A stretch of 64,000 nt of DNA from an uncultured Elusimicrobia bacterium (GCA_964358485.1 CAYHPY010000001.1:81382-145381); one strand, 5' to 3'. Counted from the first letter of the stretch, positions 19,200 to 54,838 are shown. Notes: generated by a model from the sequence alone, not told the origin. Numbers and translations are program-made.

Positions 19200-19262
19200 A
19201 AAAATAGGGACACCCCCCATTTTTACCATCGCTTGGTAAAAATGGGGGGTGTCCCTATTTTT
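19200..19262 (-). terminator. 28-bp perfect inverted repeat (hairpin) at the lysC stop codon, likely a bidirectional terminator
   Basis: aaaaatagggacaccccccatttttacc / atcgctt / ggtaaaaatggggggtgtccctattttt: perfect 28-bp arms, a 7-nt loop and T-runs on both sides. Lies between the lysC stop and the exonuclease start. Confidence 0.5.
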
Positions 19263-20493
19263 ATTTTCTGGTTAGGCCGTAGGCTTTGTGGAGGGCGCGC
19301 AGGGCGGTTTCGGCGTGGCGGGAGTCCACCACGCAGGAGATCCGCAGGTCGGAGGCGGTGATCATGTGGATGTTGACCCCGGCCTTGGCCAAGGTCTCGA
19401 ACATCCGAGCCGCCACCCAGGGGTGGTGCCGGAAACCCGTGCCCACCGCCGAGACCTTGGCCACGGATTCATTCAAGTCCACCCGGGCCTTGAGCTCGCG
19501 GGCCACCTTCTCCAGCGCCGCCACGGCTTTGGAGCTTCCGGCGCGGGGCGTCATGAAAGAAATCGCGTTGACGCCTTCCTTGGAGGGCGCCGACTGGATG
19601 ATCATGTCCAGCGGGATGGCCTTGGCCGCCAAGGCCGACAGGATGCGGGCGGCCACGCCGGGGCGGTCCGGAACGTCGGCCACCGTCAGGCGCACCTCGC
19701 CCTTGTCCAGGGCCAGGCTCGAGACATAGGCTTTTTCCATCGCGCGGTTTTTCATGCCTCTCCTTTTACTCACGATCCAGGTTCCGTTTTGGGGGTGGAA
19801 GGCCGAGCGGACATGGATGTCCACCTTGTAGCGGCGGGCGACTTCCAGGGACCGCGCCTGCATGACCTGGGCGCCGGCTCCGGCCAGCTCCAGCATTTCT
19901 TCAAAGGTGAGCCGCTGGAGCTTGCGGGCCTGGGGGACGACGCGCGGGTCGGCGGTGTAGACGCCCTTGACGTCGCTGAAAATCTCGCAGGCCCCGGTCT
20001 TAAGGGCCGAGGCCAGGGCCACCGCGGTCAAGTCCGAACCGCCCCGGCCCAAAGTGGTGACGTCGTCGCTGGGGTTGAGAGCCTGAAAGCCCGCCACGGT
20101 CACGATCCGCCCGGCCTTGAGATGCGCCCGAATCCGGTCGGTCCGGATGCGGACGATCTGCGCTTTGGTGTGGGCTCCGGCCGCCACGATGCCCGCCTGC
20201 GGGCCGGTCAAGGAAACCGCGGGCGCGCCGCGGCCGATGCACGCCATGGCAAACAGGGAAATCCCCACCTGCTCGCCGGTGGAGACCAGCTGATCCAGCT
20301 CCCGCTCGTCGGGCTCGGGGACCACGCGGGCGGCCAGCTCCAGAAGCTCGTCGGTCATCTCTCCGGGGGCCGAGACCACCACCACCACGGCATAGCCCGC
20401 CCGGCGCAAAGCCACGGCCCGGTCGGCCGCCCGCTGGATCTTCTCGGGATCAGCCACCGAGGTCCCGCCGAACTTGAGCACTTTGATCTTCAT
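19261..20493 (-). CDS. lysC: aspartate kinase with C-terminal ACT domains
   Basis: MKIKVLKFGGTSVADPEKI...VVVVSA is the classic aspartokinase N-terminus. The start is trimmed to the ATG at 20493 (the track ORF extends upstream). Confidence 0.9.
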   Translation of the reverse strand: MKIKVLKFGGTSVADPEKIQRAADRAVALRRAGYAVVVVVSAPGEMTDELLELAARVVPEPDERELDQLVSTGEQVGISLFAMACIGRGAPAVSLTGPQAGIVAAGAHTKAQIVRIRTDRIRAHLKAGRIVTVAGFQALNPSDDVTTLGRGGSDLTAVALASALKTGACEIFSDVKGVYTADPRVVPQARKLQRLTFEEMLELAGAGAQVMQARSLEVARRYKVDIHVRSAFHPQNGTWIVSKRRGMKNRAMEKAYVSSLALDKGEVRLTVADVPDRPGVAARILSALAAKAIPLDMIIQSAPSKEGVNAISFMTPRAGSSKAVAALEKVARELKARVDLNESVAKVSAVGTGFRHHPWVAARMFETLAKAGVNIHMITASDLRISCVVDSRHAETALRALHKAYGLTRK

Positions 20494-20587
20494 TCCGGGG
20501 GCCATCATAGCAATTTGCCCGGTCCCGGGGCGCTCATGCATTGAAAAACCGGTGGCACAAACCGATATTTCAAGGTATACTATTCGG

Positions 20588-21730
20588 GTGATCCAGCGCC
20601 CACGCGCCCTGCGGGCCGTTCGTTCCTTGCTGATCCGCCATCCCGTCGTTGCCCTCTTGGGCGCCCGCCAAGTCGGAAAAACCACCTTGGCCCGGGAGGT
20701 TCAGCGGGGTTTTGGCGGATCGTCCTCTTGGTTCGACTTGGAGGATCCCGCGCACCTGGCCCGCTTGTCGGAGCCGATGCTCGGATTGCGGGGCCTCAAG
20801 GGCTTAGTCGTGATCGACGAAGTCCAGCGCCTCCCGGGTTTGTTCCCGGCTTTGCGCGTCCTGGCCGACCGTCCGGGCCGGCCCGCCCGTTTTTTGCTCC
20901 TGGGAAGCGCGTCTCCCGACATCCGCCGGCAGGGCGCGGAGTCCTTGGCCGGAAGAATCGCCCATTACGCGTTGGGGCCCCTGGCGCTGGACGAGGTCGG
21001 CCGGCCCGCCCTGAACCGTCTTTGGCTGCGGGGGGGATTGCCGCGGTCCTTTCTGGCCCGCTCCGAGGCGGTCGGCGCCGAGTGGCGCAGGGAGTTCGTC
21101 GCCAGCTTTCTGGAGCGCGATTTGGGGCAGTTGGGCTTCCGGTTCCCGGCCCAGACCATGCGCCGGTTTTGGACCATGCTGGCCCATTATCATGGGCAGA
21201 TTTGGAACGCGGCGGAGTTCGCGCGCTCCTTCGGGGTCGCGGACACCACGGTCCGCGGTTATCTGGACGCCCTCTCGGCCAGCTTCCTGGTCCGCCAGCT
21301 TCAGCCTTGGCACGAGAACCTGGGCAAGCGCCAGGTCAAATCCCCCAAGATCTATATTTCGGACTCGGGACTCCTGCACACCTTGCTCGGTCTTGAGACC
21401 ATGCCCCAGCTTCAGAGCCATCCGAAGCTGGGCGCCTCTTGGGAGGGTTTCGCCTTGGAGATCGTGGTCCGGGTCCTGGGCGCCCGGCCCGAGGAGTGCT
21501 TCTTCTGGGCCACCCACGCTGGGGCCGAATTGGACCTGCTGATCGTCAAAGGCGGCAAGCGCCTGGGTTATGAGTTCAAATTCACCGAGGCTCCGGCCCT
21601 GACCCCATCCATGAAGATCGCGTTCAAAGACTTGCGGCTGGACTCCCTGCAAGTCCTCCACGCCGGGCAGGACGGCTTCCCGCTCGCCGACGGCGTGCGG
21701 GCCGTGCCGTTGGCCGCTTTTAAGCCTTAA
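20588..21730 (+). CDS. AAA+ ATPase with C-terminal DUF4143 (COG1373-like)
   Basis: Walker A LLGARQVGKTTL, Walker B LVVIDEVQ, and a downstream DUF4143 region (IYISDSGLLHTLLGL...HPKLGASWEGFALE). A GTG start at 20588 is proposed. Confidence 0.7.
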   Translation: MIQRPRALRAVRSLLIRHPVVALLGARQVGKTTLAREVQRGFGGSSSWFDLEDPAHLARLSEPMLGLRGLKGLVVIDEVQRLPGLFPALRVLADRPGRPARFLLLGSASPDIRRQGAESLAGRIAHYALGPLALDEVGRPALNRLWLRGGLPRSFLARSEAVGAEWRREFVASFLERDLGQLGFRFPAQTMRRFWTMLAHYHGQIWNAAEFARSFGVADTTVRGYLDALSASFLVRQLQPWHENLGKRQVKSPKIYISDSGLLHTLLGLETMPQLQSHPKLGASWEGFALEIVVRVLGARPEECFFWATHAGAELDLLIVKGGKRLGYEFKFTEAPALTPSMKIAFKDLRLDSLQVLHAGQDGFPLADGVRAVPLAAFKP

Positions 21731-22640
21731 GGACCTTGACTCCCGCCCGGTCCGGATTCAAAGTCAGCACCCGGACGCGGACGCCGGCCTTGGCAAAGGC
21801 CTCCTTCATGCGGCGGCCCACCAGCACCGCCCGCAGGCCCGCCGGGCACAGGGCGGCCACGGACGGGCCCGCCCCCGACAAAAACGCCCCGCAGGAGCCG
21901 ACTTTGCGGGCGGCGGCCAGCGCTTCTTCCAAACCGCGGACCAGCGGCGCGCGGTAGGGCTGGTGCAGGCGGTCTTGCGTGGCCGTCGCCAATTGCGCCC
22001 AGCGGCCCGCTTCCAGGGCCGCGGCCAAAAGCACGCTCCGGGAAAGATTGGCCACCGCGTCGGCCAGGGGCACTTTCTTAGGAAGGGCGGCGCGGGATTT
22101 TTGCGTGCTCAGCGCGTAGTCCGGCACGCACACCACGACGGCCGCGTTCTTGTGCAGGCGCAGGGGCGCCACGACCAGCCCCTCCTCCGACGGCGCGCAG
22201 GCCACCAGCCCGCCGTGGACGGCCGCCGCGGCGTTGTCGGGATGGCCCTCCAGGGCGCAGGCCATTTCCAAAAGCTTGAACCGCTTGCGGGGCCGCTTTT
22301 TGTTGAGCGCGTTGCCCGCGTAGAGCCCCGCCAAGACCGCCGCGGCCGAAGACCCCAGACCCCGCCCCAGCGGAATGCAGTTGACGGCCTTGAAGACCAA
22401 ACGCCCCGACCCCGAAGGAAGGACCAGGCGCGCCGCCTTGACCATGAGATTGGAGCCGTCGCGGGGGAGCTCGTCTTCTCCTTCCCCGTCGATGCGCACC
22501 AGGTCCGGGCCCGTCCCGGTGTGCAGTTCCAAGGTCAGCTCGTTGTAGAGCGCCAAGGCCAGGCCGAAGCAATCGAATCCCGGCCCCAGGTTGGAGGTGG
22601 AGGCCGGAACCCGGACGCGCGCGCGCGCGACCAACGCCAT
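21720..22640 (-). CDS. thrB: homoserine kinase (GHMP kinase)
   Basis: N-terminus VRVPASTSNLGPGFDCFGLAL and the GHMP motif PLGRGLGSSAAA. Confidence 0.85.
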   Translation of the reverse strand: MALVARARVRVPASTSNLGPGFDCFGLALALYNELTLELHTGTGPDLVRIDGEGEDELPRDGSNLMVKAARLVLPSGSGRLVFKAVNCIPLGRGLGSSAAAVLAGLYAGNALNKKRPRKRFKLLEMACALEGHPDNAAAAVHGGLVACAPSEEGLVVAPLRLHKNAAVVVCVPDYALSTQKSRAALPKKVPLADAVANLSRSVLLAAALEAGRWAQLATATQDRLHQPYRAPLVRGLEEALAAARKVGSCGAFLSGAGPSVAALCPAGLRAVLVGRRMKEAFAKAGVRVRVLTLNPDRAGVKVLKA

Positions 22641-22641
22641 T

Positions 22642-23670
22642 TTAAATCCTGGCCCCGCCCGCCAAGTCCTTGGCCGAGACCGTCCGGCGGCGGAACTTGA
22701 AGGTCAAAGGGGTTTCCGGGTCCTTGAGGCCGTGGCCCGTGAGCACGCAGACGATCTTGCCCTTAAGAGGATAACCCTGCCGCGCGCACTTAAGCAGGCC
22801 CGCCACGCCGGCCGCGCTGGAGGGCTCGCAGAACACCCCTTCGGCCTTGGCCAAGAGCCGGTAGGCCGCCAAAATCTCCTTGTCGGTGACCGAATCGATC
22901 AAGCCGCCGGACTCGTCGCGGGCCTTGAGCGCCCCGTCCTTGGAAACCGGATTGCCGATGCGGATGGCGGAGGCCACCGTCTTGGGCTTGTCCACCGTGC
23001 GCCCCAGGACCAAGGGGGCCGCGCCCGCGGCCTGATAGCCCATCATCCGGGGGCGCAGGCCCAGCTCGGAGTAGCCGCGCCAGTAGGCGGTGATGTTTCC
23101 GGCGTTGCCCACCGGCATGAACTGAAAATCGGGGGCCTGGCCCAACTGCTCGGCCACCTCGAAGGCGGCGGTCTTCTGGCCCTCCAGGCGGTACGGGTTG
23201 GTGGAGTTGACCAAGGTGTAGCCCAGCTTGACGGCTTGCCGGCGCGCCAGCTCCAGGGCCTGGTCGAAATTGCCGCTCACCTCCACCGTCTCGGCGCCGT
23301 GCATGAGGGCCTGGGCCAGCTTTCCCTGGGCCACCGCCCCCTTGGGCAAAAACACCACGCAGCGCAGGCCCGCCCGCGCGGCGTAGGCGGCGGCGGACGC
23401 GGCGGTGTTTCCCGTGGAGGCGCACAGCACGCCCTTGGCCCCTTCCTCCACCGCCTTGGAGATGGCCAAGGTCATCCCGCGGTCTTTGAAGGAGCCGGTC
23501 GGGTTCATCCCTTCCAGTTTTAAATAGACCGCGCCCGTCGTCAGCCCCGCCGACGCCGCGATCAGGTCCGCCCGCAGCAAGGGGGTGTCGCCCTCGTGGA
23601 GGGTGACGATCGGCGTCTTGTCGGTGACCGGCAGGCGCTCGCGCCAGCGTTGGATGATTCCGGATGTCAC
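22642..23670 (-). CDS. thrC: threonine synthase (PLP-dependent)
   Basis: PLP-lysine region NPTGSFKDRGMTLAISKA and CASTGNTAASAAAYAARAG; its stop abuts the thrB start. Confidence 0.9.
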   Translation of the reverse strand: MTSGIIQRWRERLPVTDKTPIVTLHEGDTPLLRADLIAASAGLTTGAVYLKLEGMNPTGSFKDRGMTLAISKAVEEGAKGVLCASTGNTAASAAAYAARAGLRCVVFLPKGAVAQGKLAQALMHGAETVEVSGNFDQALELARRQAVKLGYTLVNSTNPYRLEGQKTAAFEVAEQLGQAPDFQFMPVGNAGNITAYWRGYSELGLRPRMMGYQAAGAAPLVLGRTVDKPKTVASAIRIGNPVSKDGALKARDESGGLIDSVTDKEILAAYRLLAKAEGVFCEPSSAAGVAGLLKCARQGYPLKGKIVCVLTGHGLKDPETPLTFKFRRRTVSAKDLAGGARI

Positions 23671-23789
23671 GGCGACCAGTTTACATTTTTGGGGGGCCGG
23701 CCTTCATTGACTTCACTTGTTGCACGGGATAAAATGTCCCGGTCCAGGACCGAGTTCCGCGTAGGCCGCAAATTGCAATACAGACTTGC

Positions 23790-23935
23790 AATTTGCAGTA
23801 AAGGTCTACCTGCGGGACAGCGGCCCGCTCCACGCCCTGCTGGAGCTGCCCTCCGCCGGGGAGTTGCTGGGCCATCCCGCCCATCGCGTCGGCCAAGGCG
23901 TCTCCCGCGTAGAGCTTCGGCCGGAAGGAGTTTGA
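23790..23935 (+). pseudogene. remnant of a second DUF4143 AAA ATPase gene (internal fragment of about 45 codons)
   Basis: The + strand translation KVYLRDSGPLHALLELPSAGELLGHPAHRVGQGV...stop aligns to the KIYISDSGLLHTLLGL region of the intact ATPase at 20588-21730. Its 3' portion shares a 45-bp repeat with the 3' end of the nucleotidyltransferase gene. Confidence 0.4.
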
Positions 23936-23967
23936 ATTTCCTACAATGCGACTTAGATAAATTCCCG

Positions 23968-25263
23968 ATGATGAAAGCGAAGACGGCCCTTCTTCTGCTC
24001 CTCACTCTCTGTCTCTGTCCATTCGGAGGACGCGCATTTGCGGCGACGGAGAACGTGTTCCGTAAGCACAAGAATGCCGTTCTGCGCGTGCGCATTCTCG
24101 AGCGCTCCTCGGGCGCGCAAGCGAGCGTGGGCTCCGGGTTCTTCGTGGGGCGCGGCGGGCTGGCCGTCACCAACTTTCACGTCGTCGCCCACCTTGTTTG
24201 GAAGCCGGGCTCCTACGAGGCCGTGGGCGTGCTTGAAAACGACGAATCGAAGCGCGTCGAGCTTTTGGCCGTGGACGTCGTCCATGATCTGGCGGTGCTC
24301 CGCATCGAGGGAGCGCCGACGCAATCTCTCATCCTGTCGGCCTCCATCCCCCCCAAGGGTCAACGGCTCTACGCCTTGGGCAATCCACATGACCTCGGGA
24401 TGACGATCATCGAGGGAAGCTACAGCGGCCTGCTTGAGGACTCTTTGGTCCAGACGGTGCATCTGACGGGAACCTTGAATCCCGGCATGAGCGGGGGTCC
24501 GGTGCTCAACGGCTCTGGACAGGTCGTGGGGGTTTCGGTGGCGAGCGCGGGAGACGAGGTGAGCTTCCTGGTGCCGGTGGCCTTCGTCAAGACCCTCGTT
24601 GAAAACGCCCCGGCCTCCGCCACTCCGGAGGCGTTGCGGGCGGCCGTGTCCTCCCAGCTCGCGTCCCACCAGGAGACCATCGCCGGCCGACTCACCGGGT
24701 CGCCCTTCCAAACGCAGAGCCTGGGGCCCTTCCAAGTTCCGGGGAAGCTTTCTCCGGCCTTCCGCTGCTGGGCCAACTCGGATGAAGCCGAGGGGCAGCC
24801 CTATGAAGTCATCCACTCGCAATGCGATGCCGACGGCACCGTCTTCATAAATGACAGGCTTAACACCGGCACGATTGACTTCGCGCATCACATGCTTGAG
24901 GGGGGGAGCCTCAACGCCTTCCGGCTCTCCGCTCTGCAGAAGCGCTATTTCCATGAGAACTCCTCGTTCGCCGGGGAAGCCGGGGGCTTTCTGTGGGCGG
25001 GCATGGGCCAGGAGGACCAGGATCTGACTCCTTATGATTGCTCTTCGTCCACCGTCGAATCGAGAGAGCTCGTTTTAAAGGCCATCATCTGCCTGCGCGC
25101 CTACAAAAAGTTCCCGGGCCTCTACGACATGCAGTGGAGGGGGACTTCCTTTGTGGACAGCCGCCGCGCGTTCACGTCCTATCTCACGGTCGAGGGAACT
25201 TCGCGCGAGAACGCGGAAAAGTTCCTGCGCCGGTATCTGGAGGCATTCACGTGGAAGAAGTAG
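23968..25263 (+). CDS. secreted trypsin-like serine protease (S1C/Do-like, no obvious PDZ)
   Basis: Signal peptide MMKAKTALLLLLTLCLCPFGGRAFA, His region VTNFHVV, Asp region DLAVLRI, and catalytic Ser motif GMSGGPV. The start is trimmed to 23968. Confidence 0.75.
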   Translation: MMKAKTALLLLLTLCLCPFGGRAFAATENVFRKHKNAVLRVRILERSSGAQASVGSGFFVGRGGLAVTNFHVVAHLVWKPGSYEAVGVLENDESKRVELLAVDVVHDLAVLRIEGAPTQSLILSASIPPKGQRLYALGNPHDLGMTIIEGSYSGLLEDSLVQTVHLTGTLNPGMSGGPVLNGSGQVVGVSVASAGDEVSFLVPVAFVKTLVENAPASATPEALRAAVSSQLASHQETIAGRLTGSPFQTQSLGPFQVPGKLSPAFRCWANSDEAEGQPYEVIHSQCDADGTVFINDRLNTGTIDFAHHMLEGGSLNAFRLSALQKRYFHENSSFAGEAGGFLWAGMGQEDQDLTPYDCSSSTVESRELVLKAIICLRAYKKFPGLYDMQWRGTSFVDSRRAFTSYLTVEGTSRENAEKFLRRYLEAFTWKK

Positions 25264-25385
25264 GGCCGCCGCCTGCTTCGCCGCCTCCCGCCGCGGAGGC
25301 GGGCCCGGGCCCGGTTGCCTGGATCGAGAGAGGGACGACGACGGCGCTGATCCTCCTGGTCACGATCCCGACCGACGCGGTGGTG

Positions 25386-25940
25386 ATGTACAACGCGATG
25401 TATCAGCGCGTCTCGCCGCCCATGATCGGGTTCATCGTGATGACTTGGCTTATTTCGAATCTCGTGATGTTCCTCCCTTGGTCCGGCCTCTGGGCGTTGG
25501 CCACCAAGGTATTCCGGCGGCGCGCGCGCTTCATCGGCCATCTCAATACCGCCCTGCTCGCGGGCCTCCTGTGGACCTGGCTGCGCGGGTCCCTGGACGT
25601 TGTCGTGTTCGCCGTGTCCGCCGACGATCAACGCAGCGTGCCGTACTTCTTGCTTCTCGGCGCGGCCTTGTCGGCCACGCTCTGGGGGCACCTGCGGCTG
25701 GTCTCCACGGCGTCCCCGCGCCGGCTGGGGGGCGTTGCCATCATCATCGGCGCGTTCGTTGTCGGGATCGCCTCCGGCGTTCGGGCGCTTGCCATCCGGC
25801 GCACCCCCGCCGCGCGGACCGCCGACATTACGATCTTTCCGCATTTCCTGCGGCTCACGGCTCCGGTGTCAATCGAGCGCCACATTCAGTCCCTGGATGG
25901 ACTCAAGAAAACGGTCGACGCGCGCGCGAAGGAACTCTAA
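25386..25940 (+). CDS. hypothetical integral membrane protein
   Basis: Several hydrophobic helices (IGFIVMTWLISNLVMFLPWSGLWALA, GVAIIIGAFVVGIASG) downstream of the protease. The start is ambiguous (25314-25386). Confidence 0.4.
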   Translation: MYNAMYQRVSPPMIGFIVMTWLISNLVMFLPWSGLWALATKVFRRRARFIGHLNTALLAGLLWTWLRGSLDVVVFAVSADDQRSVPYFLLLGAALSATLWGHLRLVSTASPRRLGGVAIIIGAFVVGIASGVRALAIRRTPAARTADITIFPHFLRLTAPVSIERHIQSLDGLKKTVDARAKEL

Positions 25941-26006
25941 AGACCGCCGTTTCCGGGGGAAGTGTGTGGCGTCCTTTTTGGCGGCTAGCCCCAAAGCTTC
26001 GCCGGT

Positions 26007-26858
26007 TCAGCGCGGAGTCGACGCGCCCATCGCGTCGGCCAAGGAGTCCCCCGCGTAAAGCCTCGGCAAGATCCCGCCCGGCCGTCCGAAATGAGGCGCG
26101 CAGTCGACGGGGGCCCCGGGGCCCGGCAGCACGAACCGCCGTTCTTGGGGGGAATAATACAGGCAGCCCGCTTCCTCCGAAGGGCGGCTCCTCGCGAAGG
26201 CCTCCGCGCCCTCCAACGCTGCCAGCCACTGGGTTTTGAGGGCGGTCGGTTCCACCGGCGCGGCCAGGTGGAGACGCTCGAAATCCACCGGCTGGTAGCG
26301 CCCCCGGCGGCGGATGAGGTCCAGCAGGGAGATCGGGGTAAATCCCGGGTCCTTGCCGACCGCCGCCCAGAGCAGGGCCGGGAAGGGGAGGAGCTCCGCG
26401 TGGGCGTAGAGCACGTCCAGGAAATCCCGAGGCTCGTCGCGGCCGGCCAGCGCCAGGACTTTGTTGACGGCCAGATCCACGGGATGAAGCGCCCAGCCCG
26501 CGCCGGCCAGGCGCACGGCGGGCATGAAACGCCACGCCGAGTCGTGCGCCCATTCGATCTTCACTCCCTGGTCCCCGGCCTCGGCCAGCGCCCGGATGTA
26601 TCCGGGCTGAGCGACTTGGACCGACACCGCGATGCCGTTGTCCTCCAAGACCTTGCGGTCGGCCGCGAAGGCCGTGGCCACCCGCTCCGCGGAATCATGA
26701 AAGTAGTCCAGGTCATTGCTGAAACGCTTGGACTCCGGGCGAAAATGCAGGGCCGCCGCTCCGGCCAGGTGGCTGTCGGGAGTCCGATTTGGGGCCAGCA
26801 AGAGGGAGACCTTCGCTTGAAAAGGAGTTAGCGGCATAAGCGCGCCGCCGTTTCCCAA
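26007..26858 (-). CDS. nucleotidyltransferase, AbiEii/AbiGii-like (DUF1814) putative toxin
   Basis: N-terminal region KVSLLLAPNRTPDSHLAGAAALHF...RFSNDLDYF matches the AbiEii nucleotidyltransferase fold signature (GG.AL...R.S.DLD.F). Confidence 0.65.
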   Translation of the reverse strand: MGNGGALMPLTPFQAKVSLLLAPNRTPDSHLAGAAALHFRPESKRFSNDLDYFHDSAERVATAFAADRKVLEDNGIAVSVQVAQPGYIRALAEAGDQGVKIEWAHDSAWRFMPAVRLAGAGWALHPVDLAVNKVLALAGRDEPRDFLDVLYAHAELLPFPALLWAAVGKDPGFTPISLLDLIRRRGRYQPVDFERLHLAAPVEPTALKTQWLAALEGAEAFARSRPSEEAGCLYYSPQERRFVLPGPGAPVDCAPHFGRPGGILPRLYAGDSLADAMGASTPR

Positions 26859-27094
26859 GCTTGCCGCCCGCCGTGTTTTTTAAGCTGCTCCACCACCCAG
26901 GGGATGTCGGACGCCGTCAGGGGGCGGGCGGGATCGAAGGACCAAAAGCAGGAGGTCTGGAATTTTCGGAAGGCGCGGCGGGCTTCCCGAAGGCGGACCA
27001 TTTCCCTGGCCGTTTCCGGGGGCAGGACGCGGCGGCTCTTGGCGCCCCCACGGCGGCCGATTTCGGATAGGTAGCGGCGAATGGACTGGTCCAT
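26828..27094 (-). CDS. small basic protein, putative cognate partner or antitoxin of the nucleotidyltransferase
   Basis: The 88-aa ORF overlaps the NTase start by 31 bp (a TA-like arrangement) and contains LSEIGRRGGAKSRRVLPPETAREMVRLREARR. It is not a canonical AbiEi. Confidence 0.45.
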   Translation of the reverse strand: MDQSIRRYLSEIGRRGGAKSRRVLPPETAREMVRLREARRAFRKFQTSCFWSFDPARPLTASDIPWVVEQLKKHGGRQAWETAARLCR

Positions 27095-27160
27095 TGGTAT
27101 ATTATAAGCCGCTTATGATAAAAAGTCAATATTACGGCCCCTGGCAGTCCTGGGCCGTGT

Positions 27161-28453
27161 TTACAGCATCCGCAGAACGGTATGCTTGGCGGCCACGGAC
27201 CCCAGCCGCAAAATCTCGCGGCGGGCGGCGTCCACCTGGCCGTGCTCGGCCTCATGGGTGGTCAGGACTATGGGCACGCCCCAGCGCGTGCGCTCGGCCG
27301 GCTGGTGGATGGTGGCAATCGAGATCCCGCGCCCGCCCAACGCCTTGGCGATGGACGCCAGCACCCCGGGCTTGTCCTGGGCGTGAAAGCGCAGGTAGAA
27401 CGGGGCCTTGGACTGGGCCACGGCAATCAAGCGCGACGGCCGCCGGTCCAGCTTGCGGGCGGGGATCGAGCCCAAAAGATCGCGGGACAGCATGAACACG
27501 TCGCCCACCACGGCGCTGGCGGCCGGTCCCGGGCCCGCGCCCTTTCCGTAGAACATCAGGTCCCCGGCGGAGGAGGCCCGGACCAAGAGGGCGTTGAACT
27601 CCCGGTGCACCGAGGCCAGCGGATGGGCCAAAGGCACCAAGGTGGGAAACACATGCGCCTCCACCCCCACCGACGCGCCCCAGTCCAGCTTCAAGGAGCC
27701 CAACAGCCGCACGGTGCGGCCCAGCTCCTCCTTGGCGAAGGCCAAATCCGCCTCGTGCAGGTTCTCGATCCCTTCGCGGGCGATCTTCATGGACGGCAAA
27801 GAGGTCCCCGTCAGCAAGGAGGCCAGCACCGAGACCTTGTGCGCGGTGTCGGTGCCATTTAAATCCAAGGTGGGGTCCTTCTCGGCCAAGCCTTTTTCCT
27901 GAGCCTCCTTCAAAGCGGCCTGTAGGGGAATGCCTTCCTGCGCGCGGCTTAAAATGTAGTTCGTGGTCCCGTTCAAAATCCCCGTCACCGCTTCAATCGT
28001 GTTGCCCGCCAGGCCGTTGTCTAAAGCCTCGATGATGGGAATGCCGCCCGCCACGCTGGCCTCGAAATAAAGGCGCGCCCCGCGCCGGGCGGCGGCCTTC
28101 TGCAGTTCGGGCCAGCAATGGGCCAGCAGGCGCTTGTTGGCGGTGACCACATTCATGCCCGACTCCAGGGAGAACAAGACCAGTCGCCGCGCGTCCTCCA
28201 GGCCGCCGATCACCTCCACGATGATGTCGATCCCGGGGTGGCTGACGAGTTGGCGGGGGTCGGTGGTCTGATAGACGTCTTTGCCCAGGCCGAGAGCTTT
28301 GGCCTCTTTCTTGACCTGGCGGTCGCAGACGGCGCCGATAACGATGTCGGCGCCCAGTCGCCGGGAGAATTTCTCTCGATTGGCCTGCAGGAGGCGAATG
28401 GTTTCCCGTCCGACGAAGCCCAGGCCGGCGACGGCCACGTTGATGGTTCTCAC
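27161..28453 (-). CDS. hom: homoserine dehydrogenase with C-terminal ACT domain
   Basis: N-terminal Rossmann VAVAGLGFVGRE, catalytic region LYFEASVAGGIPII and NGTTNYIL, plus a C-terminal ACT domain. Confidence 0.9.
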   Translation of the reverse strand: MRTINVAVAGLGFVGRETIRLLQANREKFSRRLGADIVIGAVCDRQVKKEAKALGLGKDVYQTTDPRQLVSHPGIDIIVEVIGGLEDARRLVLFSLESGMNVVTANKRLLAHCWPELQKAAARRGARLYFEASVAGGIPIIEALDNGLAGNTIEAVTGILNGTTNYILSRAQEGIPLQAALKEAQEKGLAEKDPTLDLNGTDTAHKVSVLASLLTGTSLPSMKIAREGIENLHEADLAFAKEELGRTVRLLGSLKLDWGASVGVEAHVFPTLVPLAHPLASVHREFNALLVRASSAGDLMFYGKGAGPGPAASAVVGDVFMLSRDLLGSIPARKLDRRPSRLIAVAQSKAPFYLRFHAQDKPGVLASIAKALGGRGISIATIHQPAERTRWGVPIVLTTHEAEHGQVDAARREILRLGSVAAKHTVLRML

Positions 28454-28463
28454 GGGAGGGAGT

Positions 28464-30908
28464 TTACTTTTTTTGGGGTGTTATCTTTATGACGATTGGT
28501 AGGCAATCCACGAATTCCGCAACCACGCGGAAGTCATCCTCTCCTGCATTTTCAAGGATGATGGGCTCGAATTCCGGATTGATCGGCGATAATGTAATCC
28601 GGACTCGTTTCCAGGCGCCCTCGTCAGTGACCCCGACCTCGCTCGAGTACTTCTTTACGGTATACCGGCCGTCGTTCTCAGGGTCACAGATCAAGCGGCT
28701 TTCGACTAGGACGATCTTGCCATTCCGGCTCCCACCTCTTTCCCATCGGAAAATGCACCAAGCTCCGTCCGGAATTCTTGGGAGCATTGACCGGCCTTTG
28801 ACGAAGGTAACGAACATGTCTCGATTCAGCCGCCAGCCTGAGGGAACTTCCACCCAGCCAAGGGGGTTTGTTTTTTGCTCCTCGGTGAATTCACCCGCGG
28901 CCACGGCGAGGGAGAAAACCGGGAGGTGCGTGACGTGCTGTGCGGTGAGCGCGATATTGGGCAGGATAAATGGTTCCGGTGCCGGGTTGATCTCAAGCGG
29001 AGGCGTGACGGCGTGACGGGCGGCGTTCGTGAGGTGCTCTTGCAGGTAGGCGCTCAGGTCCGTGTCCTCGCACCATACAAAGCAGCCCTTCCGGCCGCGC
29101 GTCAGCAAAGTTTTATACGTTCCTTTGATGATTTCCTGGACCCGGTCGAGAATCGCCTTTTCCGCCGCCGACTTTCCCTTCGCCGCGAGTAGGTCGGATT
29201 TCCAGCCCTTCAAAGATGAGTCGGTCTTGGCGCGCATTTCGGGGATGCCGACGACCTTCCCATCCTTTAATGAGAGGTCGCCCCCAATTAGGACGCCGAG
29301 CCAGTCGAATTCAAGGCCTTGGCAGGTATGAATGCAGCCGACCTGTCCGATGCCGTCCGGGCTGGTGGCCCAATTTTCCCCATCAAAATTCCATGGAAGC
29401 TTCAACTCATCGGCCGCCACGTGCTTGGTGCCGGCACCGCGCCCGCGTCCCTGCTTTGGCCAATCCCATGAGTAGCCCGCGATGAGGCGCGCCTTGTTGG
29501 CCGCGTTTTTGGCCCTGAGCGCGGCGTAAAGGTCTTCGGCCCTCTCGAAAACGCGAAAATCGTATTCGTTATCCCAGCCCGCGGCGGCCCCAGTTCCTCC
29601 GACTTGAAGAACTTGATCGAGCCAATTTAAATATCCAGTGGAGCCGTTGCAGCGGAACTGGGCCGATAACCGCAAGGGCTCCTGCATCTCGGCGTTAAAC
29701 TTTTTCGCGGCTTTTCTGATCGCCGCCACGGAGCCGATGTCGTTCCAGGAAACCGTTTGGCCCTCATCGATGAAAAATACGCTGACGCGGGCCGCTCGAA
29801 CCATGTCTTCGACCATGCTGTTGCCTTTGTACTGAAACGCCCCTTTCCCTTTGAGGCGATGGGCCTCATCGATTATCAGCACTTCAAATTGCCGGTCCTT
29901 GCGGTAATCGACGTCGTGGAAGGTCCATGAGGAATTCAAAAGTTGACGGCCATCTTCTCGATACCCCCGGTTTCCGCGGGATAATTGCTCTATCAACGTT
30001 TTTCGGAAGGCGGCGTTGGGGGCCACGAAGAATCCCGCCCGCTTTTCCTTTAGAATTTCGGAGAGCAGGCGAATTGCAATGACGGATTTTCCGGTTCCGG
30101 GCCCGCCCTCGATTATGAAGACATGTCGCTTGGTTAAATTCTTTTTGGTGAGGATTTCGTGGCGGACAATTTGAAATGCCTCGTACTGCTCATTGATCAA
30201 GAAGAACTCCGGATTTCCATCCAGCATGCTGCTAACTCGTCCGATCAGTTCGTCGGACGGCCGCATCTTGCCGTTTTCGATAAGGAACATCACATCCCGC
30301 TTGGGTTTCAGCGGAACGACGGTTTCGAGGTATTTTTTCAGTTCTTGGGAATCGTTCGCCAGAAATAGCCGCGAATCTTTCAACAGATCCTTGTACTTGG
30401 GGTCCTCCAAAGGTTCCGGCTTTCGACGATTTAGGTTGAAGAGATAGGCCGCGGCATGGAGGGAAATGGCCGCTTGCCGGACATCTTCGTTGAAGTTCAG
30501 AATCAGCCCTTTGTAGCCCAGCGCCTGGGCGGATGGGTGCTGAGTTATTTTCCCGCCGCCCACGGGAGCCCAGACCATGTCCTCCGGTCCGGCCGCCCTG
30601 GCATCTGCCCACGCCTTAAGTTCAATGATTAGCCCGTTGTCGGTTTTGCCGTCATTGCCGGACAGAAGAACATCCACGCGGAAGCGGCCCGCGGCCGAAA
30701 CATGATACTCGATGGCCACCTGCACCTCATCCTCGACTTGGGCGTTGCCCAAAGCTATTGAAAAGCGCGCGTATTCGTCCGCCCACACTCTCTGATCGCT
30801 GGGGACGCTGCCGGTCTTTTCCCGGAACTTGGTTACAAGCATCGATTGTAGCCGGTTTGCGTTGACATCTTCGAGGAACCCGGCTCTGGACGATTGATAG
30901 ATAATCAT
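28464..30908 (-). CDS. three-domain fusion: PD-(D/E)xK-like nuclease N-domain, DUF2075 (Schlafen-like) ATPase/helicase, and C-terminal LexA/S24-like autopeptidase
   Basis: N-terminus: RFRVDVLL...IIELKAW (D...ELK nuclease-like). Middle: Walker A IIEGGPGTGKSVIA, Walker B VLIIDEAHRL, DUF2075-like core. C-terminus: VAAGEF (LexA Ala-Gly cleavage-site-like), then about 36 aa later GRSMLP (Ser nucleophile, cf. GDSMxP), TVKKY (Lys of the Ser-Lys dyad) and LSPINPEFEPI (LexA C-terminal motif). The ATG overlaps the Fic stop by 4 bp. Confidence 0.75.
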   Translation of the reverse strand: MIIYQSSRAGFLEDVNANRLQSMLVTKFREKTGSVPSDQRVWADEYARFSIALGNAQVEDEVQVAIEYHVSAAGRFRVDVLLSGNDGKTDNGLIIELKAWADARAAGPEDMVWAPVGGGKITQHPSAQALGYKGLILNFNEDVRQAAISLHAAAYLFNLNRRKPEPLEDPKYKDLLKDSRLFLANDSQELKKYLETVVPLKPKRDVMFLIENGKMRPSDELIGRVSSMLDGNPEFFLINEQYEAFQIVRHEILTKKNLTKRHVFIIEGGPGTGKSVIAIRLLSEILKEKRAGFFVAPNAAFRKTLIEQLSRGNRGYREDGRQLLNSSWTFHDVDYRKDRQFEVLIIDEAHRLKGKGAFQYKGNSMVEDMVRAARVSVFFIDEGQTVSWNDIGSVAAIRKAAKKFNAEMQEPLRLSAQFRCNGSTGYLNWLDQVLQVGGTGAAAGWDNEYDFRVFERAEDLYAALRAKNAANKARLIAGYSWDWPKQGRGRGAGTKHVAADELKLPWNFDGENWATSPDGIGQVGCIHTCQGLEFDWLGVLIGGDLSLKDGKVVGIPEMRAKTDSSLKGWKSDLLAAKGKSAAEKAILDRVQEIIKGTYKTLLTRGRKGCFVWCEDTDLSAYLQEHLTNAARHAVTPPLEINPAPEPFILPNIALTAQHVTHLPVFSLAVAAGEFTEEQKTNPLGWVEVPSGWRLNRDMFVTFVKGRSMLPRIPDGAWCIFRWERGGSRNGKIVLVESRLICDPENDGRYTVKKYSSEVGVTDEGAWKRVRITLSPINPEFEPIILENAGEDDFRVVAEFVDCLPIVIKITPQKK

Positions 30909-32011
30909 AATGTTTGTGGCCTCAATGAATAGCTCGTGCTCCGCCCCCCCGCCGCCTCCTTAACCAGTATCCCATGCCCAATCAACCCCACAATATCCCG
31001 CTGCGCCGTATCGTGCGAACATTTCATCAGCAACGCCCACTTCGTCGTCGTCAGCTTCCCCTTGAACTCCCCATCCAACAGCCTATTCAGCATCCCCCGC
31101 TGCCTCTCGTTAAGCGAGAGATGGGCGCAAGTCTTCCAGAACGCCTCCTTCTCCAGGGCGGCCTTTAAAGACGCCTGCGCCCCCAAAATGGCGCGGTCCA
31201 GGCAAGCCAAAAACCAAAGCATCCAGTCGGTGATGTCGAGGGTTCCCTTCCCGGTGGCTTCAAGGATCGCGTAGTAGGCCTTGCGCTCCAGCTGGATTTG
31301 CGCCGACATGCTGTAGCAGCGCCGGGCTCTGTTCTCCGACCGGGCCAGCGCCCAGTCCGCGATGGCGCGGGCGACCCGGCCGTTGCCGTCGTCGAAGGGG
31401 TGGATGTTCACGAACCATAGGTGCGCCTGCGCGGCCCGGAGCAGGGGGTCGAGGTCGCCGGGCCGGTTGGCCCATTGGAAGAAGGCGCTCATTTCCGATT
31501 CCAGGCGCTCCGCCGCCGGCGCCTCGTAGTGGACTTTTTCAAGCCCGATGGCGCCGGACACCACCTGCATGGGGCCCGCGGCGTCGTCGCGCCAGCGGCC
31601 GACTTGCACGCGCTGCGGGGCGATGGGAAACAGCGACCGGTGCCAGTCCAGCAGGCGCTCCTGGGTCAGGGGTTGGGAATAGTTCCGCGTGGCTTCCAGC
31701 GTCATGTCCACCACGCCCTCCACGCGGCGGTCCGCGGGTGTGAGGCCCGCGATGTCTAGCCCCAAGCGGCGGGCGATGGAAGAGCGCACTTGGTCCGGGT
31801 TAAGGAACTCGCCCTCGATCTCGCTGGATTTGACGACGTCCTGGGTGAACGCTTTTAGGACGGCCTCGTTCTGCTGCGAGAAGCCGAGGCTTTCCAGCGA
31901 GCCGATGAGCTGTCCTTGCCTTAGGCGCGCGGCCGCCAGGGGCTGGACCAGGGCTTCCTGGCGCCAGTGGAAATTGGGCCAGTCATCGTGTTCGTGGATG
32001 TATTTGGTCAT
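30905..32011 (-). CDS. fic: Fic/Doc family protein (putative AMPylase) with N-terminal DUF4172-like region and C-terminal wHTH-like region
   Basis: Canonical Fic motif HPFDDGNGRVAR (HPFx[DE]GNGR). 368 aa; the stop overlaps the downstream fusion gene start (ATGA). Confidence 0.85.
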   Translation of the reverse strand: MTKYIHEHDDWPNFHWRQEALVQPLAAARLRQGQLIGSLESLGFSQQNEAVLKAFTQDVVKSSEIEGEFLNPDQVRSSIARRLGLDIAGLTPADRRVEGVVDMTLEATRNYSQPLTQERLLDWHRSLFPIAPQRVQVGRWRDDAAGPMQVVSGAIGLEKVHYEAPAAERLESEMSAFFQWANRPGDLDPLLRAAQAHLWFVNIHPFDDGNGRVARAIADWALARSENRARRCYSMSAQIQLERKAYYAILEATGKGTLDITDWMLWFLACLDRAILGAQASLKAALEKEAFWKTCAHLSLNERQRGMLNRLLDGEFKGKLTTTKWALLMKCSHDTAQRDIVGLIGHGILVKEAAGGRSTSYSLRPQTL

Positions 32012-32174
32012 AATACGCAGACTGTGCGTATATTATAATGCGTAAAGTTAATAATTTCAAGTCTTTATACGCTAAATGTTCGTAGAATAAGCGAATTAAT
32101 CTACGCATGGTGGCTACTTGACGAAATCCCGCCGACCTGCTAAACTTGTTGTGTATAACTAACAACTGTTAGGT
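32012..32174. promoter_or_regulatory. AT-rich divergent promoter/operator region between the fic operon and the MNT/HEPN pair
   Basis: taatacgcagactgtgcgtatattataatgcgtaaag...tacgctaaatg...ctacgcatgg: five tacgc/gcgta half-sites, including the near-palindrome tacgcagac/tgtgcgta. Low GC relative to the flanks. Confidence 0.4.
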
Positions 32175-32804
32175 ATGACTAACGATATCCCCAGCGGCCC
32201 ATCGCTTCCCCAAGAAGACGCCCAAACGCGCGTCCTGAGATTCCTTTGGCGCAGCCGGAGCGAATGGAGCGGCCGGGAGGTCGCCCGCAAGGTGGGCTTG
32301 AGCGCGCCCGCCTGCCACGCGGCCCTCAAGAAGCTCGACGCCAGGGGGCTGGTTCTTTTCAGGCGCGTCTCGAACGTGCATCTATACCAGATTAACCCCG
32401 AGAACTATCTGGTCCAGAAGATCTTCGCGCGCCAATTCGAGGCCGAGGCGGCCATGCCCAAGGAGGTCGCCGCCCTGGTGGTGAAGTCCCTGGTCGATTC
32501 CCCCAAGACCGCCATCCAGGCCATCGTGCTTTTCGGCAGTATGGCGCGGGGCACGGGGCGCATCGGCAGCGACCTGGACCTCCTGGTTGTCCTTGCGGAG
32601 AAGGAAGGCGCCACGGCTCTGGAGCCGCGAATTGAGCGGCTAAGGGAACTGCTGTTCAAGCGCTTCAGCGTCCCTTTGTCGCCCTACATCCAAACCTTGT
32701 CCGAACTGAGGGAAAAGCACCAACAAAAGCTGCCGTTGATCGGAGAGATTCTTAAAGACGGACGGACCATTTACGGCCAAGAAATCAAGGAGTTGCTGCC
32801 ATGA
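32175..32804 (+). CDS. minimal nucleotidyltransferase (MNT/MntA-like) with N-terminal wHTH, putative antitoxin
   Basis: Pol-beta-type NTase motif LFGSMARGTGRIGSDLDLLVV, and an N-terminal wHTH (SGREVARKVGLSAPACHAALKKLDARGLV). Confidence 0.75.
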   Translation: MTNDIPSGPSLPQEDAQTRVLRFLWRSRSEWSGREVARKVGLSAPACHAALKKLDARGLVLFRRVSNVHLYQINPENYLVQKIFARQFEAEAAMPKEVAALVVKSLVDSPKTAIQAIVLFGSMARGTGRIGSDLDLLVVLAEKEGATALEPRIERLRELLFKRFSVPLSPYIQTLSELREKHQQKLPLIGEILKDGRTIYGQEIKELLP

Positions 32805-33208
32805 CCCCGAAGAAGCTCAAGACGCGCTCGGTGTCGCGTGAGCGCCATTCGACCTATCTCAAGAAGGCGATGGAGTTCCTGCGGGCCGCGGAGTCGTCGA
32901 TGAAAATAGGCGATTGGGACGCCGTGGGACTCAACGCGGTCCACTCGGCGATCTCCGCCGCGGACGCGGTTCTGGTCTATTACGGCGGCGTTCGCTCTGC
33001 CGGCGATTCCCATCATGACGTGGCCGGCCTTTTGCGCCAGCACATCAAGGATGACCAGCTCGGTTCTAAAATACAGACGCTCTCCAAGGTGCTTGGCTAT
33101 AAAAACTTGGCCGCCTATGAGGATCGGGAAGTCACGGAGGCCGAGGGCCGGGACGCGGAGAAGCTGGCGCGGCGGTTTTTGGATTGGGCTCAGTCGCGCT
33201 TGGCGTGA
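32801..33208 (+). CDS. HEPN domain protein (HepT-like putative toxin)
   Basis: The 135-aa ORF overlaps the MNT stop by 4 bp and contains an R-x4-6-H HEPN motif (RSAGDSHHD). Confidence 0.7.
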   Translation: MTPKKLKTRSVSRERHSTYLKKAMEFLRAAESSMKIGDWDAVGLNAVHSAISAADAVLVYYGGVRSAGDSHHDVAGLLRQHIKDDQLGSKIQTLSKVLGYKNLAAYEDREVTEAEGRDAEKLARRFLDWAQSRLA

Positions 33209-33285
33209 GCCCTGGGGCTTCTCCTCCGGGCGGCATCTTTCCCGATGACCGGCAGTTGACGGTTATTTATCGTGGGCTTAATTGC

Positions 33286-33330
33286 GAGTTGGCTATTTAA
33301 CTTTAGTGATCTAAAGTTAAATAGCGGGAA
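33286..33330. promoter_or_regulatory. perfect 14-bp-arm palindrome in a 295-bp AT-rich spacer
   Basis: ctatttaactttag tgatc taaagttaaatag, within the non-coding region 33209-33502 upstream of the gene at 33503. Confidence 0.35.
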
Positions 33331-33502
33331 TGGCCTTAAAGAAGGCGATTTATTAATTCCATATTGGGTCTCAAAATGGAGTTATTGATTCCAAATTGAC
33401 ATTATCCCCGGCAAACCCACCTGGGCTCGGCCCCCCTCTCCCGCGGCCCTTTCCCGAAATACTCCAGTAATCATTAAGGATCATAATGAATAGCCTCCTC
33501 CC

Positions 33503-36867: not shown

Positions 36868-36932
36868 GGTGCCAGGTATCCACTTTCTTAACATTCTTCC
36901 GGGGAAAGTTTAGAAAGTGGATACCTGGCACC
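36868..36932. mobile_element. MITE-like 65-bp element with perfect 21-bp terminal inverted repeats (copy 1)
   Basis: ggtgccaggtatccactttct...agaaagtggatacctggcacc flanking a 23-bp core (taacattcttccggggaaagttt). Sits 4 bp after the OMP stop codon; a near-identical copy is at 54774-54838. Confidence 0.55.
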
Positions 36933-36936
36933 GAAA

Positions 36937-54770: not shown

Positions 54771-54773
54771 GAT

Positions 54774-54838
54774 GGTGCCAGGTATCCACTTTCTTAACAT
54801 TCGCCCGGGGAAAGTTTAGAAAGTGGATACCTGGCACC
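54774..54838. mobile_element. MITE-like 65-bp element with perfect 21-bp TIRs (copy 2)
   Basis: ggtgccaggtatccactttct taacattcgcccggggaaagttt agaaagtggatacctggcacc; begins 4 bp after the sthA stop. The core differs from copy 1 by 2 nt. Confidence 0.55.

Follow-up and report, generated by a model that had tools for sequence, protein, structure and literature searches.

Within a 64,000-nucleotide stretch of DNA from an uncultured Elusimicrobia bacterium (GCA_964358485.1, CAYHPY010000001.1:81382-145381; hereafter the window, with positions counted from its first letter), a gene at 28464-30908 on the minus strand encodes an 814-residue fusion of a PD-(D/E)xK-like N terminus, a DUF2075 helicase core of superfamily 1B (SF1B), a linker and a LexA-like S24 peptidase domain. 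With moderate confidence, we read this protein as a probable Nhi-like defence nuclease–helicase equipped with a LexA-like self-cleaving switch, belonging to a widespread family that moves horizontally and is normally coupled to a MazG-like gene, and we regard the Fic gene that overlaps it here as incidental. The family is normally found as a two-gene cassette in which a MazG-like nucleoside triphosphate (NTP) pyrophosphohydrolase is translationally coupled upstream of the fusion, and the window carries the effector of such a MazG-like plus DUF2075(-S24) cassette but not its usual partner. The cassette is defined in this analysis and is not a published system.

The fusion gene, the Fic gene and all of their features described below lie on the minus strand. 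A profile hidden Markov model search with Pfam placed the DUF2075 (SLFN-g3) helicase core at residues 261-615 (29064..30128; E 3.2e-85), and the translation reads a Walker A motif, GGPGTGKS, at residues 268-275 (30084-30107) and a Walker B motif, LIIDEAH, at residues 344-350 (29859-29879), so that the DUF2075 ATPase core proposed in the first-pass annotation of this DNA stands. Structural neighbours of the core are SF1B enzymes (RecD2, RecD, Upf1, Dna2, Dda, SLFN11 and SLFN14), as well as AddAB and FBH1; by sequence and modelling it is an SF1B ATPase/helicase, predicted to be ATP-driven and to work in the 5′–3′ direction. The Schlafen group III proteins SLFN11 and SLFN14 share the Pfam helicase family and their structures match the fusion core, whereas the fusion is bacterial, lacks the AlbA_2 RNase domain, begins with a different N terminus and ends in an S24 tail. 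Among PDB sequences, phmmer matched nothing to the whole protein or to the S24 region, the profile of homolog alignment A1 matched P-loops only and the N-terminal profile of alignment A2 matched nothing meaningful.

The region ahead of the core (residues 1-250; 30159..30908) is probably a PD-(D/E)xK nuclease, as judged by its conserved residues and strand order. The candidate catalytic residues E67, D79 and E96-x-K98 (30615-30710) are invariant in alignments A1 and A2, and E67, D79 and E96-L-K98 are likewise invariant across 23 homologs. In a full-length AlphaFold model (mean predicted local distance difference test score (pLDDT) of 75), a helix at 39-55, strands at 63-67, 80-85 and 90-98, a helix at 125-139 and a strand at 149-156 give the order α–β–β–β–α–β, which places the candidate residues on a PD-(D/E)xK-type arrangement. 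Two results count against the assignment: residues 1-250 have no significant Pfam match, those to PDDEXK_3 being sub-threshold (E 0.006-0.03) and leaving the fold unconfirmed, and an AlphaFold model of the N-terminal 252 residues alone had a pLDDT of 44 and was discarded. The PD-(D/E)xK-like region of the first-pass annotation is supported by its invariant residues and strand order and not by the family profile or the domain-only structure prediction, and because of these two shortfalls we hold the nuclease to be probable rather than demonstrated.

With its probable nuclease region, the fusion follows the domain order of Nhi (Staphylococcus epidermidis SERP2475; Bari et al. 2022), in which an N-terminal PD-(D/E)xK-type region precedes a DUF2075 (PF09848) SF1B core. 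Nhi, with its nuclease plus DUF2075 plan, has the same SF1B-type structural neighbours as the fusion (Dda, Upf1 and Dna2), and one homolog is toxic when expressed (10.1101/776245); Nhi-like single-gene nuclease–helicases are anti-phage systems (Millman et al. 2022). The fusion differs in carrying a 170-residue LexA-like S24 tail and in belonging to a family that usually has a MazG-like companion. Its matches to the PADLOC models of Nhi (E 2.3e-10) and AbiO (E 1.1e-10) span residues 234-421 only, or about positions 180-330 of a 470-position profile, which tells against a closer relationship; because these matches are weak and partial, we consider the fusion to be Nhi-like in its architecture without being an orthologue of Nhi.

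The fusion has many relatives. Among 5.8 billion proteins searched, more than 80 clusters of about 800-815 residues are 53-60% identical to it and have an identical Pfam set, and there are also shorter relatives of about 630-660 residues that lack the S24 domain and are 62-66% identical across the common part; roughly two-thirds of the surveyed relatives bear a C-terminal S24. The fusion is thus no one-off: these proteins form a large family whose only database name is ‘DUF2075 family protein’. The first-pass annotation took a LexA-like tail on such a nuclease–helicase to be undescribed, and this fared better: the searchable literature, which leaves most subscription journals outside its coverage, includes Nhi, Nhi-like proteins and SoFic but yielded no report of a DUF2075 protein bearing S24, of DUF2075 combined with MazG, or of S24 tails on restriction or defence enzymes. 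The string ‘S24’ in Millman et al. (2022), considered as a mention of the peptidase, refers there to supplementary table numbers.

Our survey covers 82 loci with relatives of 32-60% identity; clustering at 90% nucleotide identity leaves 74 clusters. A single-sequence scan of genome contigs contributed 3 loci only, and the survey rests on an alignment-based metagenome scan and on exact-protein look-ups. A MazG-like gene (PF12643, 116 residues) lies directly upstream on the same strand in 48 of the 52 S24-bearing loci whose upstream flank is long enough to judge; after de-replication it is adjacent in 46 of 49 S24-bearing and 15 of 25 short-form clusters, and tblastn detected MazG in 66 of 84 loci. 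Spacing is tight: the MazG match ends 0 bp from the fusion start in 13 loci and within 32 bp in 59 of 63, and the junction is often an ATGA-type overlap like the one between Fic and the fusion in the window. PF12643 itself was called in loci L005, L006, L007, L088, L089, L090 and L036, and the acidic ExxExxE...ExxD residues of the MazG-like protein are at least 90% conserved among 64 sequences. Placed beside a DNA-targeting effector, such an enzyme may act on deoxynucleoside triphosphate (dNTP) or modified-nucleotide pools. The whole 64-kb window contains no MazG-like sequence, and the Fic/fusion junction holds no remnant of one.

Near the fusion homologs lie AbiEi/AbiEii, HNH, Fic and IS200-type genes, and in some loci the MazG-like plus fusion cassette forms a two-gene islet amid housekeeping genes. 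HNH_2 (PF13391) was considered as a conserved third component and set aside, being found downstream in 3 loci only, with weak matches in 2 more; where present, this gene of about 312-320 codons follows the fusion (L007:10442-11380, where it overlaps the fusion 3′ end, L061:3301-4218 and L055:8138-9100) as an occasional third cassette gene.

In the window the coupled upstream position is taken by a 368-residue Fic protein (30905-32011), whose gene ends in an ATGA overlap with the fusion start (30905-30908; Fic ...ACA TTA TGA, fusion ATG ATT ATC), as the first-pass annotation had described. It comprises a DUF4172 domain (residues 4-85, E 4e-33), a Fic domain (residues 114-222, E 3.5e-18) and a winged helix–turn–helix (HTH)-like tail, and its C terminus is typical of the family. 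The putative auto-inhibitory motif S62-S-E-I-E66-G67 (31811..31828) fits (S/T)xxxE(G/N), which we take to be the inhibitory motif of class II Fic proteins, as S62-x3-E66-G67. The catalytic motif HPFDDGNGRVAR (residues 204-215; 31367..31402) aligns to that of Coxiella CbFic2 (PDB 8CIL), the closest solved relative (E 2.6e-89 over residues 1-364) and a DNA-binding-regulated AMPylase/deAMPylase. The protein has the DUF4172, Fic and C-terminal HTH architecture of SoFic and CbFic2 and a full-length match to the PADLOC SoFic model (E 3.2e-40, residues 12-362), but scores 45.9 bits against the 550-bit cutoff of the SoFic equivalog NF046030, far below it, and is thus a relative of CbFic2 rather than of the Shewanella oneidensis SoFic.

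According to the first-pass annotation, an upstream Fic gene was an obligate partner of the fusion. The neighbourhood survey does not support this: a MazG-like gene occupies that place in 46 of the 49 S24-bearing clusters, and a Fic gene is coupled in 0 of the 82 other loci (74 clusters). A Fic-like gene occurs within the 6-8-kb flank in only 5 of the 74 clusters, a frequency that fits ordinary defence-island clustering. The closest Fic homologs, 81-82% identical and from metagenome-assembled genomes of Elusimicrobia, stand alone with no DUF2075 gene downstream, one in an aromatic-amino-acid operon just upstream of aroA and another beside LemA/TPM genes, and SoFic is itself described as a standalone defence gene (Millman et al. 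2022). In L092 (6001-7107; GCA_026388115.1), an 81%-identical Fic gene sits within a trp/aro operon between DAHP synthase and aroA, echoing the window unit that ends in hom, and Fic genes of this lineage may favour operons for amino-acid biosynthesis.

The composition of the genes points the same way. The G+C fraction at third codon positions (GC3) is 0.67 in the fusion gene, 0.835 in Fic, 0.863 in the neighbouring hom and 0.84-0.91 in the other thr genes, a difference that indicates separate histories. Self-matches aside, Fic has a best identity of 82%, hom one of 67% and the fusion one of 60%, and the closest relatives of the fusion are found in Verrucomicrobiota, Kiritimatiellae and Planctomycetota. 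By its hom sequence, the host belongs to Elusimicrobiota. Given this GC3 contrast, the identities and the matches to other phyla, the fusion gene looks like a later acquisition wedged between a host-like Fic and hom.

An alternative we consider improbable is that Fic and the fusion constitute an obligate two-gene toxin or defence module, in which Fic AMPylates the nuclease–helicase or its target, or replaces MazG. The 4-bp overlap, a single promoter-like site ahead of Fic, the lack of a terminator separating the two genes, and the presence of the pair, identical and intact, in an independent groundwater assembly (L094) as well as in the window leave room for a locally evolved Fic link and so weigh against our reading, as do the Fic-family genes beside the MazG–fusion cassette in two other loci, one of another subfamily and on the same strand ahead of MazG (L023) and one 54% identical and divergent (L035); DNA-binding regulation of CbFic2 would also suit such a module. 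Because the independent assembly has both genes intact, they are not assembly artefacts. Because MazG is the usual partner, Fic is uncoupled elsewhere, its homologs are standalone and GC3 differs, the pairing is most likely a local accident, an insertion that brought two independent accessory genes together, and the ATGA shared with Fic a secondary, locus-specific junction. Fic is most likely an independent, host-resident gene of the SoFic/CbFic2 type, and to judge by its sequence it probably acts independently as a SoFic-like AMPylase.

The C-terminal domain that sets the fusion apart from its short relatives is a LexA/UmuD-like Peptidase_S24 (residues 663-799; 28512..28922), which scores 39 bits in Pfam against a gathering cutoff of 23.3 and is supported by its fold. 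Ser707 (28788-28790) aligns to LexA S119 and Lys752 (28653-28655) to LexA K156, while the predicted self-cleavage site A671/G672, in LAVAA/GEF (28893..28898), aligns to LexA A84-G85 and UmuD C24-G25. Of 53 sequences with a median identity of 39%, 51 retain S707, 51 retain K752, 52 have A670 and 48 have G672; the dyad does not vary within alignments A1, A3 and A4, and neither do the catalytic and cleavage residues among 23 homologs. From these residues the S24 domain looks CATALYTICALLY competent, and with the Pfam score above the curated cutoff and the Ser-Lys dyad and Ala-Gly site intact, the first-pass call of a LexA/S24-type domain holds. The tail has in common with LexA, UmuD and lambda CI the Ala-Gly site, the Ser-Lys dyad, the fold and the spacing from A671-G672 to S707 (35 residues, compared with 34 in LexA). 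It differs from them in its cargo, a 650-residue enzyme rather than an HTH domain or a short pro-peptide, in lying C-terminal to a nuclease–helicase, and in belonging to a distinct clade that is rarely linked to HTH domains.

That clade was explored with an exhaustive search using fusion residues 655-814 as the query, which gave 1,672 representative clusters; of these, 928 scored E <= 1e-10. The S24 domain lies within 25 residues of the C terminus in 139 of the 149 top matches. N-terminal partners assigned by Pfam (proteins P0241-P0389) include the Type ISP C-terminal domain, ResIII, SNF2 and DEAD helicases, N6_Mtase, Eco57I and MmeI, AlwI, Type I HsdR and S subunits, Mrr, LlaJI, DpnI-like enzymes, PLD and HNH nucleases, Schlafen AlbA_2 and STAND NTPases, and the S24-bearing proteins score strongly against PADLOC models of Type IIG, I, II and III restriction, DISARM DrmMI and Druantia DruE. 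As the first partner set (n = 69) leaned to long proteins, the remaining 78 shorter representatives were scanned separately; classical HTH-S24 repressors account for 7 of these 78, and several others are fragments of DUF2075 or restriction–modification proteins. An [A/C]-G site precedes the catalytic Ser by 33-46 residues (mode 35) in 166 of 200 related sequences, and the residues ahead of the scissile Gly at these 166 sites are AAA in 84, AAC in 39 and VAA in 22.

These patterns lead us to entertain a broader reading, which we hold only tentatively: the S24 clade may be a widespread plug-in module that couples the stability or activity of restriction and defence enzymes to RecA–single-stranded DNA (ssDNA) filaments or to other stress, and the MazG-like plus nuclease–helicase–S24 cassette may be an undescribed defence system that uses it. 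Such a module could serve either as a built-in, SOS-linked restriction-alleviation device or as an infection sensor.

For the fusion itself, we propose that the nuclease–helicase would, by analogy with Nhi, attack invading or replicating phage DNA and that the S24 tail would serve as a post-translational switch. A signal such as a RecA–ssDNA filament would induce Ser707 and Lys752 to cut the chain at A671/G672, releasing the LexA-like (dimerising) domain and leaving a 671-residue enzyme that ends in ...VAA. The direction that we favour for this switch is off, as a damage-triggered, built-in form of ‘restriction alleviation’, because the S24 clade is hosted mostly by restriction enzymes that need to be active before infection, because LexA cleavage inactivates, because cleavage is predicted to leave ...AA at the end of the product, as in the ClpX signal of LexA(1-84), and because short relatives without S24 exist. 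Cleavage of LexA is inactivating and exposes a ...VAA degron for ClpX on LexA(1-84), and in ClpXP-dependent restriction alleviation the Type I HsdR subunit is removed after DNA damage. We liken the logic, the removal of a DNA-cutting enzyme when host DNA is damaged or unmodified, as a comparison of mechanism and not of membership: LexA(1-84) ends in ...VAA and the predicted products of the fusion family end in AAA or VAA, whereas the trigger proposed for the fusion is built into the enzyme as its S24 domain.

Several further points speak against this favoured account. The 39 of 166 sites that end in ...AAC rather than ...AA weaken the degron argument; the cleavage-site loop (residues 668-680) is of low confidence in the full-length model, which limits any judgement of its docking into the active site; that the protein is a nuclease, cleaves itself, depends on RecA and acts against phages is in each case a prediction; and the lack of MazG means that the window copy may be non-functional, with a nonsense change in the sister-strain contig L004.

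The switch may instead work in the opposite direction. In this serious rival, to which we assign a lower though appreciable probability, the S24 tail holds the nuclease–helicase inactive and RecA–ssDNA filaments made during infection trigger an activating cleavage, giving an abortive-infection or infection-sensing system akin to the conversion of UmuD to UmuD′ or to prophage induction. UmuD, which is activated by cleavage, aligns equally well; DUF2075 proteins lack a self-protecting cognate methylase, one Nhi homolog is toxic on expression, and the cleavage site and catalytic dyad are conserved. Yet the same S24 clade is found on Type I, IIG, ISP and III enzymes and on Mrr, which must be active before infection, and the S24-less short relatives presumably work without any lock. 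Inactivation on damage remains the direction that we prefer.

A lesser rival removes the fusion from immunity altogether. On this view, which we think unlikely, the cassette would belong to the DNA-damage response as an accessory module: MazG would sanitise damaged dNTPs, and the helicase–nuclease would process damaged DNA under RecA-controlled proteolysis in the manner of UmuD. LexA/UmuD-type domains and MazG-type house-cleaning enzymes are classically tied to DNA damage, the structural neighbours of the core include the repair helicase–nucleases RecD, AddAB, Dna2 and FBH1, and some cassettes lie, as noted, among housekeeping genes. However, the patchy cross-phylum distribution and atypical GC of the family, its AbiE, HNH, Fic and insertion sequence (IS) neighbours, a domain plan equal to that of Nhi and the overwhelmingly restriction- and defence-related hosts of the rest of the S24 clade all count against it.

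Least probable among the alternatives, in our estimate, is that the fusion gene in the window is decaying after the loss of MazG and persists as non-functional cargo upstream of hom. Besides the absence of MazG across the window, the contig L004, from another sample and 99.8% identical to the window, bears on this: 16 of its differences are packed into the HEPN–Fic–fusion segment at 29668-33367 with none in hom, and they comprise a 1-bp deletion in HEPN, frameshifting indels in Fic, a TGA-to-TGG change of the Fic stop at 30905, a nonsense change at fusion codon 59 (30734) and an in-frame 3-bp deletion. With L004 covered at only 4.6x, these changes may be errors; the alternative is that the accessory genes are decaying in a sister strain. 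Against decay, the reading frames in the window and in the groundwater assembly are full-length with all invariant family residues intact, and three S24-bearing and nine short-form clusters likewise have no adjacent MazG.

Just upstream of the Fic start, a sigma-70-like sequence, TTGAAA-17-TATAAT (32032..32060, minus strand), matches the consensus at 11 of 12 positions and by that match is a candidate promoter for a Fic–fusion–hom transcript; no convincing terminator-like site was found in the intervals between these three genes. The homoserine dehydrogenase gene hom (27161..28453, minus strand; Pfam) starts 10 bp past the fusion stop and is a host gene that is probably co-transcribed with Fic and the fusion, forming context outside the module. 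In the two nearest relatives (L096 and L097) hom, thrC, thrB and the aspartokinase gene are contiguous, whereas in the window hom lies 3.5 kb from thrC. The threonine operon is interrupted, essentially as had been proposed, although the pair lies upstream of hom and not between thr genes. In L096 a trypsin-like protease gene lies divergent, upstream of hom; in the window (19261-28453) hom lies beyond the protease, together with a pair of genes of 88 and 283 codons. A 71-nucleotide direct repeat of 76% identity (23851-23921 and 25997-26067), in which the 3′ end of the AbiEii-like 283-codon gene is copied just upstream of thrC, flanks the trypsin-like protease block and resembles the scar of a rearrangement separating hom from thrC. 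It is the only notable repeat in a search of the window for island boundaries, which found no transfer RNA gene and no convincing flanking att-like repeats.

The accessory neighbours listed in the first-pass annotation, an MNT/HEPN pair (32175-33208), the weakly AbiEii-like 283-residue gene and the trypsin-like protease, are all present and make the setting defence-like. On the plus strand, divergent from Fic, the MNT HTH-nucleotidyltransferase (209 residues) and HEPN (135 residues) genes overlap by 4 bp and match the PADLOC candidate system PDC-M05A/B and the MntA antitoxin model weakly only. The 88-residue gene overlaps the 283-residue gene (AbiEii match, E 0.003) at 26007-27094 on the minus strand, and the two have their own strong promoter-like site (27101-27129, 11 of 12 positions) just downstream of hom; judged by sequence, they may form a type IV toxin–antitoxin-like pair. 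In the AT-rich spacer between HEPN and a FecR-like gene, a perfect 15-nucleotide inverted repeat, GCTATTTAACTTTAG / CTAAAGTTAAATAGC, with a 4-nucleotide loop (33292-33325) may be a terminator or an operator. A 66-bp segment at about 36869-36934 recurs at 54773-54838 in the same orientation, 97% identical and about 17.9 kb away, and was seen as a secondary BLAST match of L004.

Taken as a family, the MazG-like plus nuclease–helicase(-S24) pair is a common, cross-phylum two-gene unit that is absent from the defence-system models tested and from the searchable literature. The pairing with Fic, seemingly a local accident, carries little weight, and the S24 tails found across defence enzymes are the most interesting lead. 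If the S24 tail does cleave itself, it would tie the activity of DNA-cutting immune enzymes, hundreds of which carry such a tail, directly and post-translationally to signals of DNA damage or ssDNA, and would bear on the old question of how bacteria avoid self-restriction after DNA damage.

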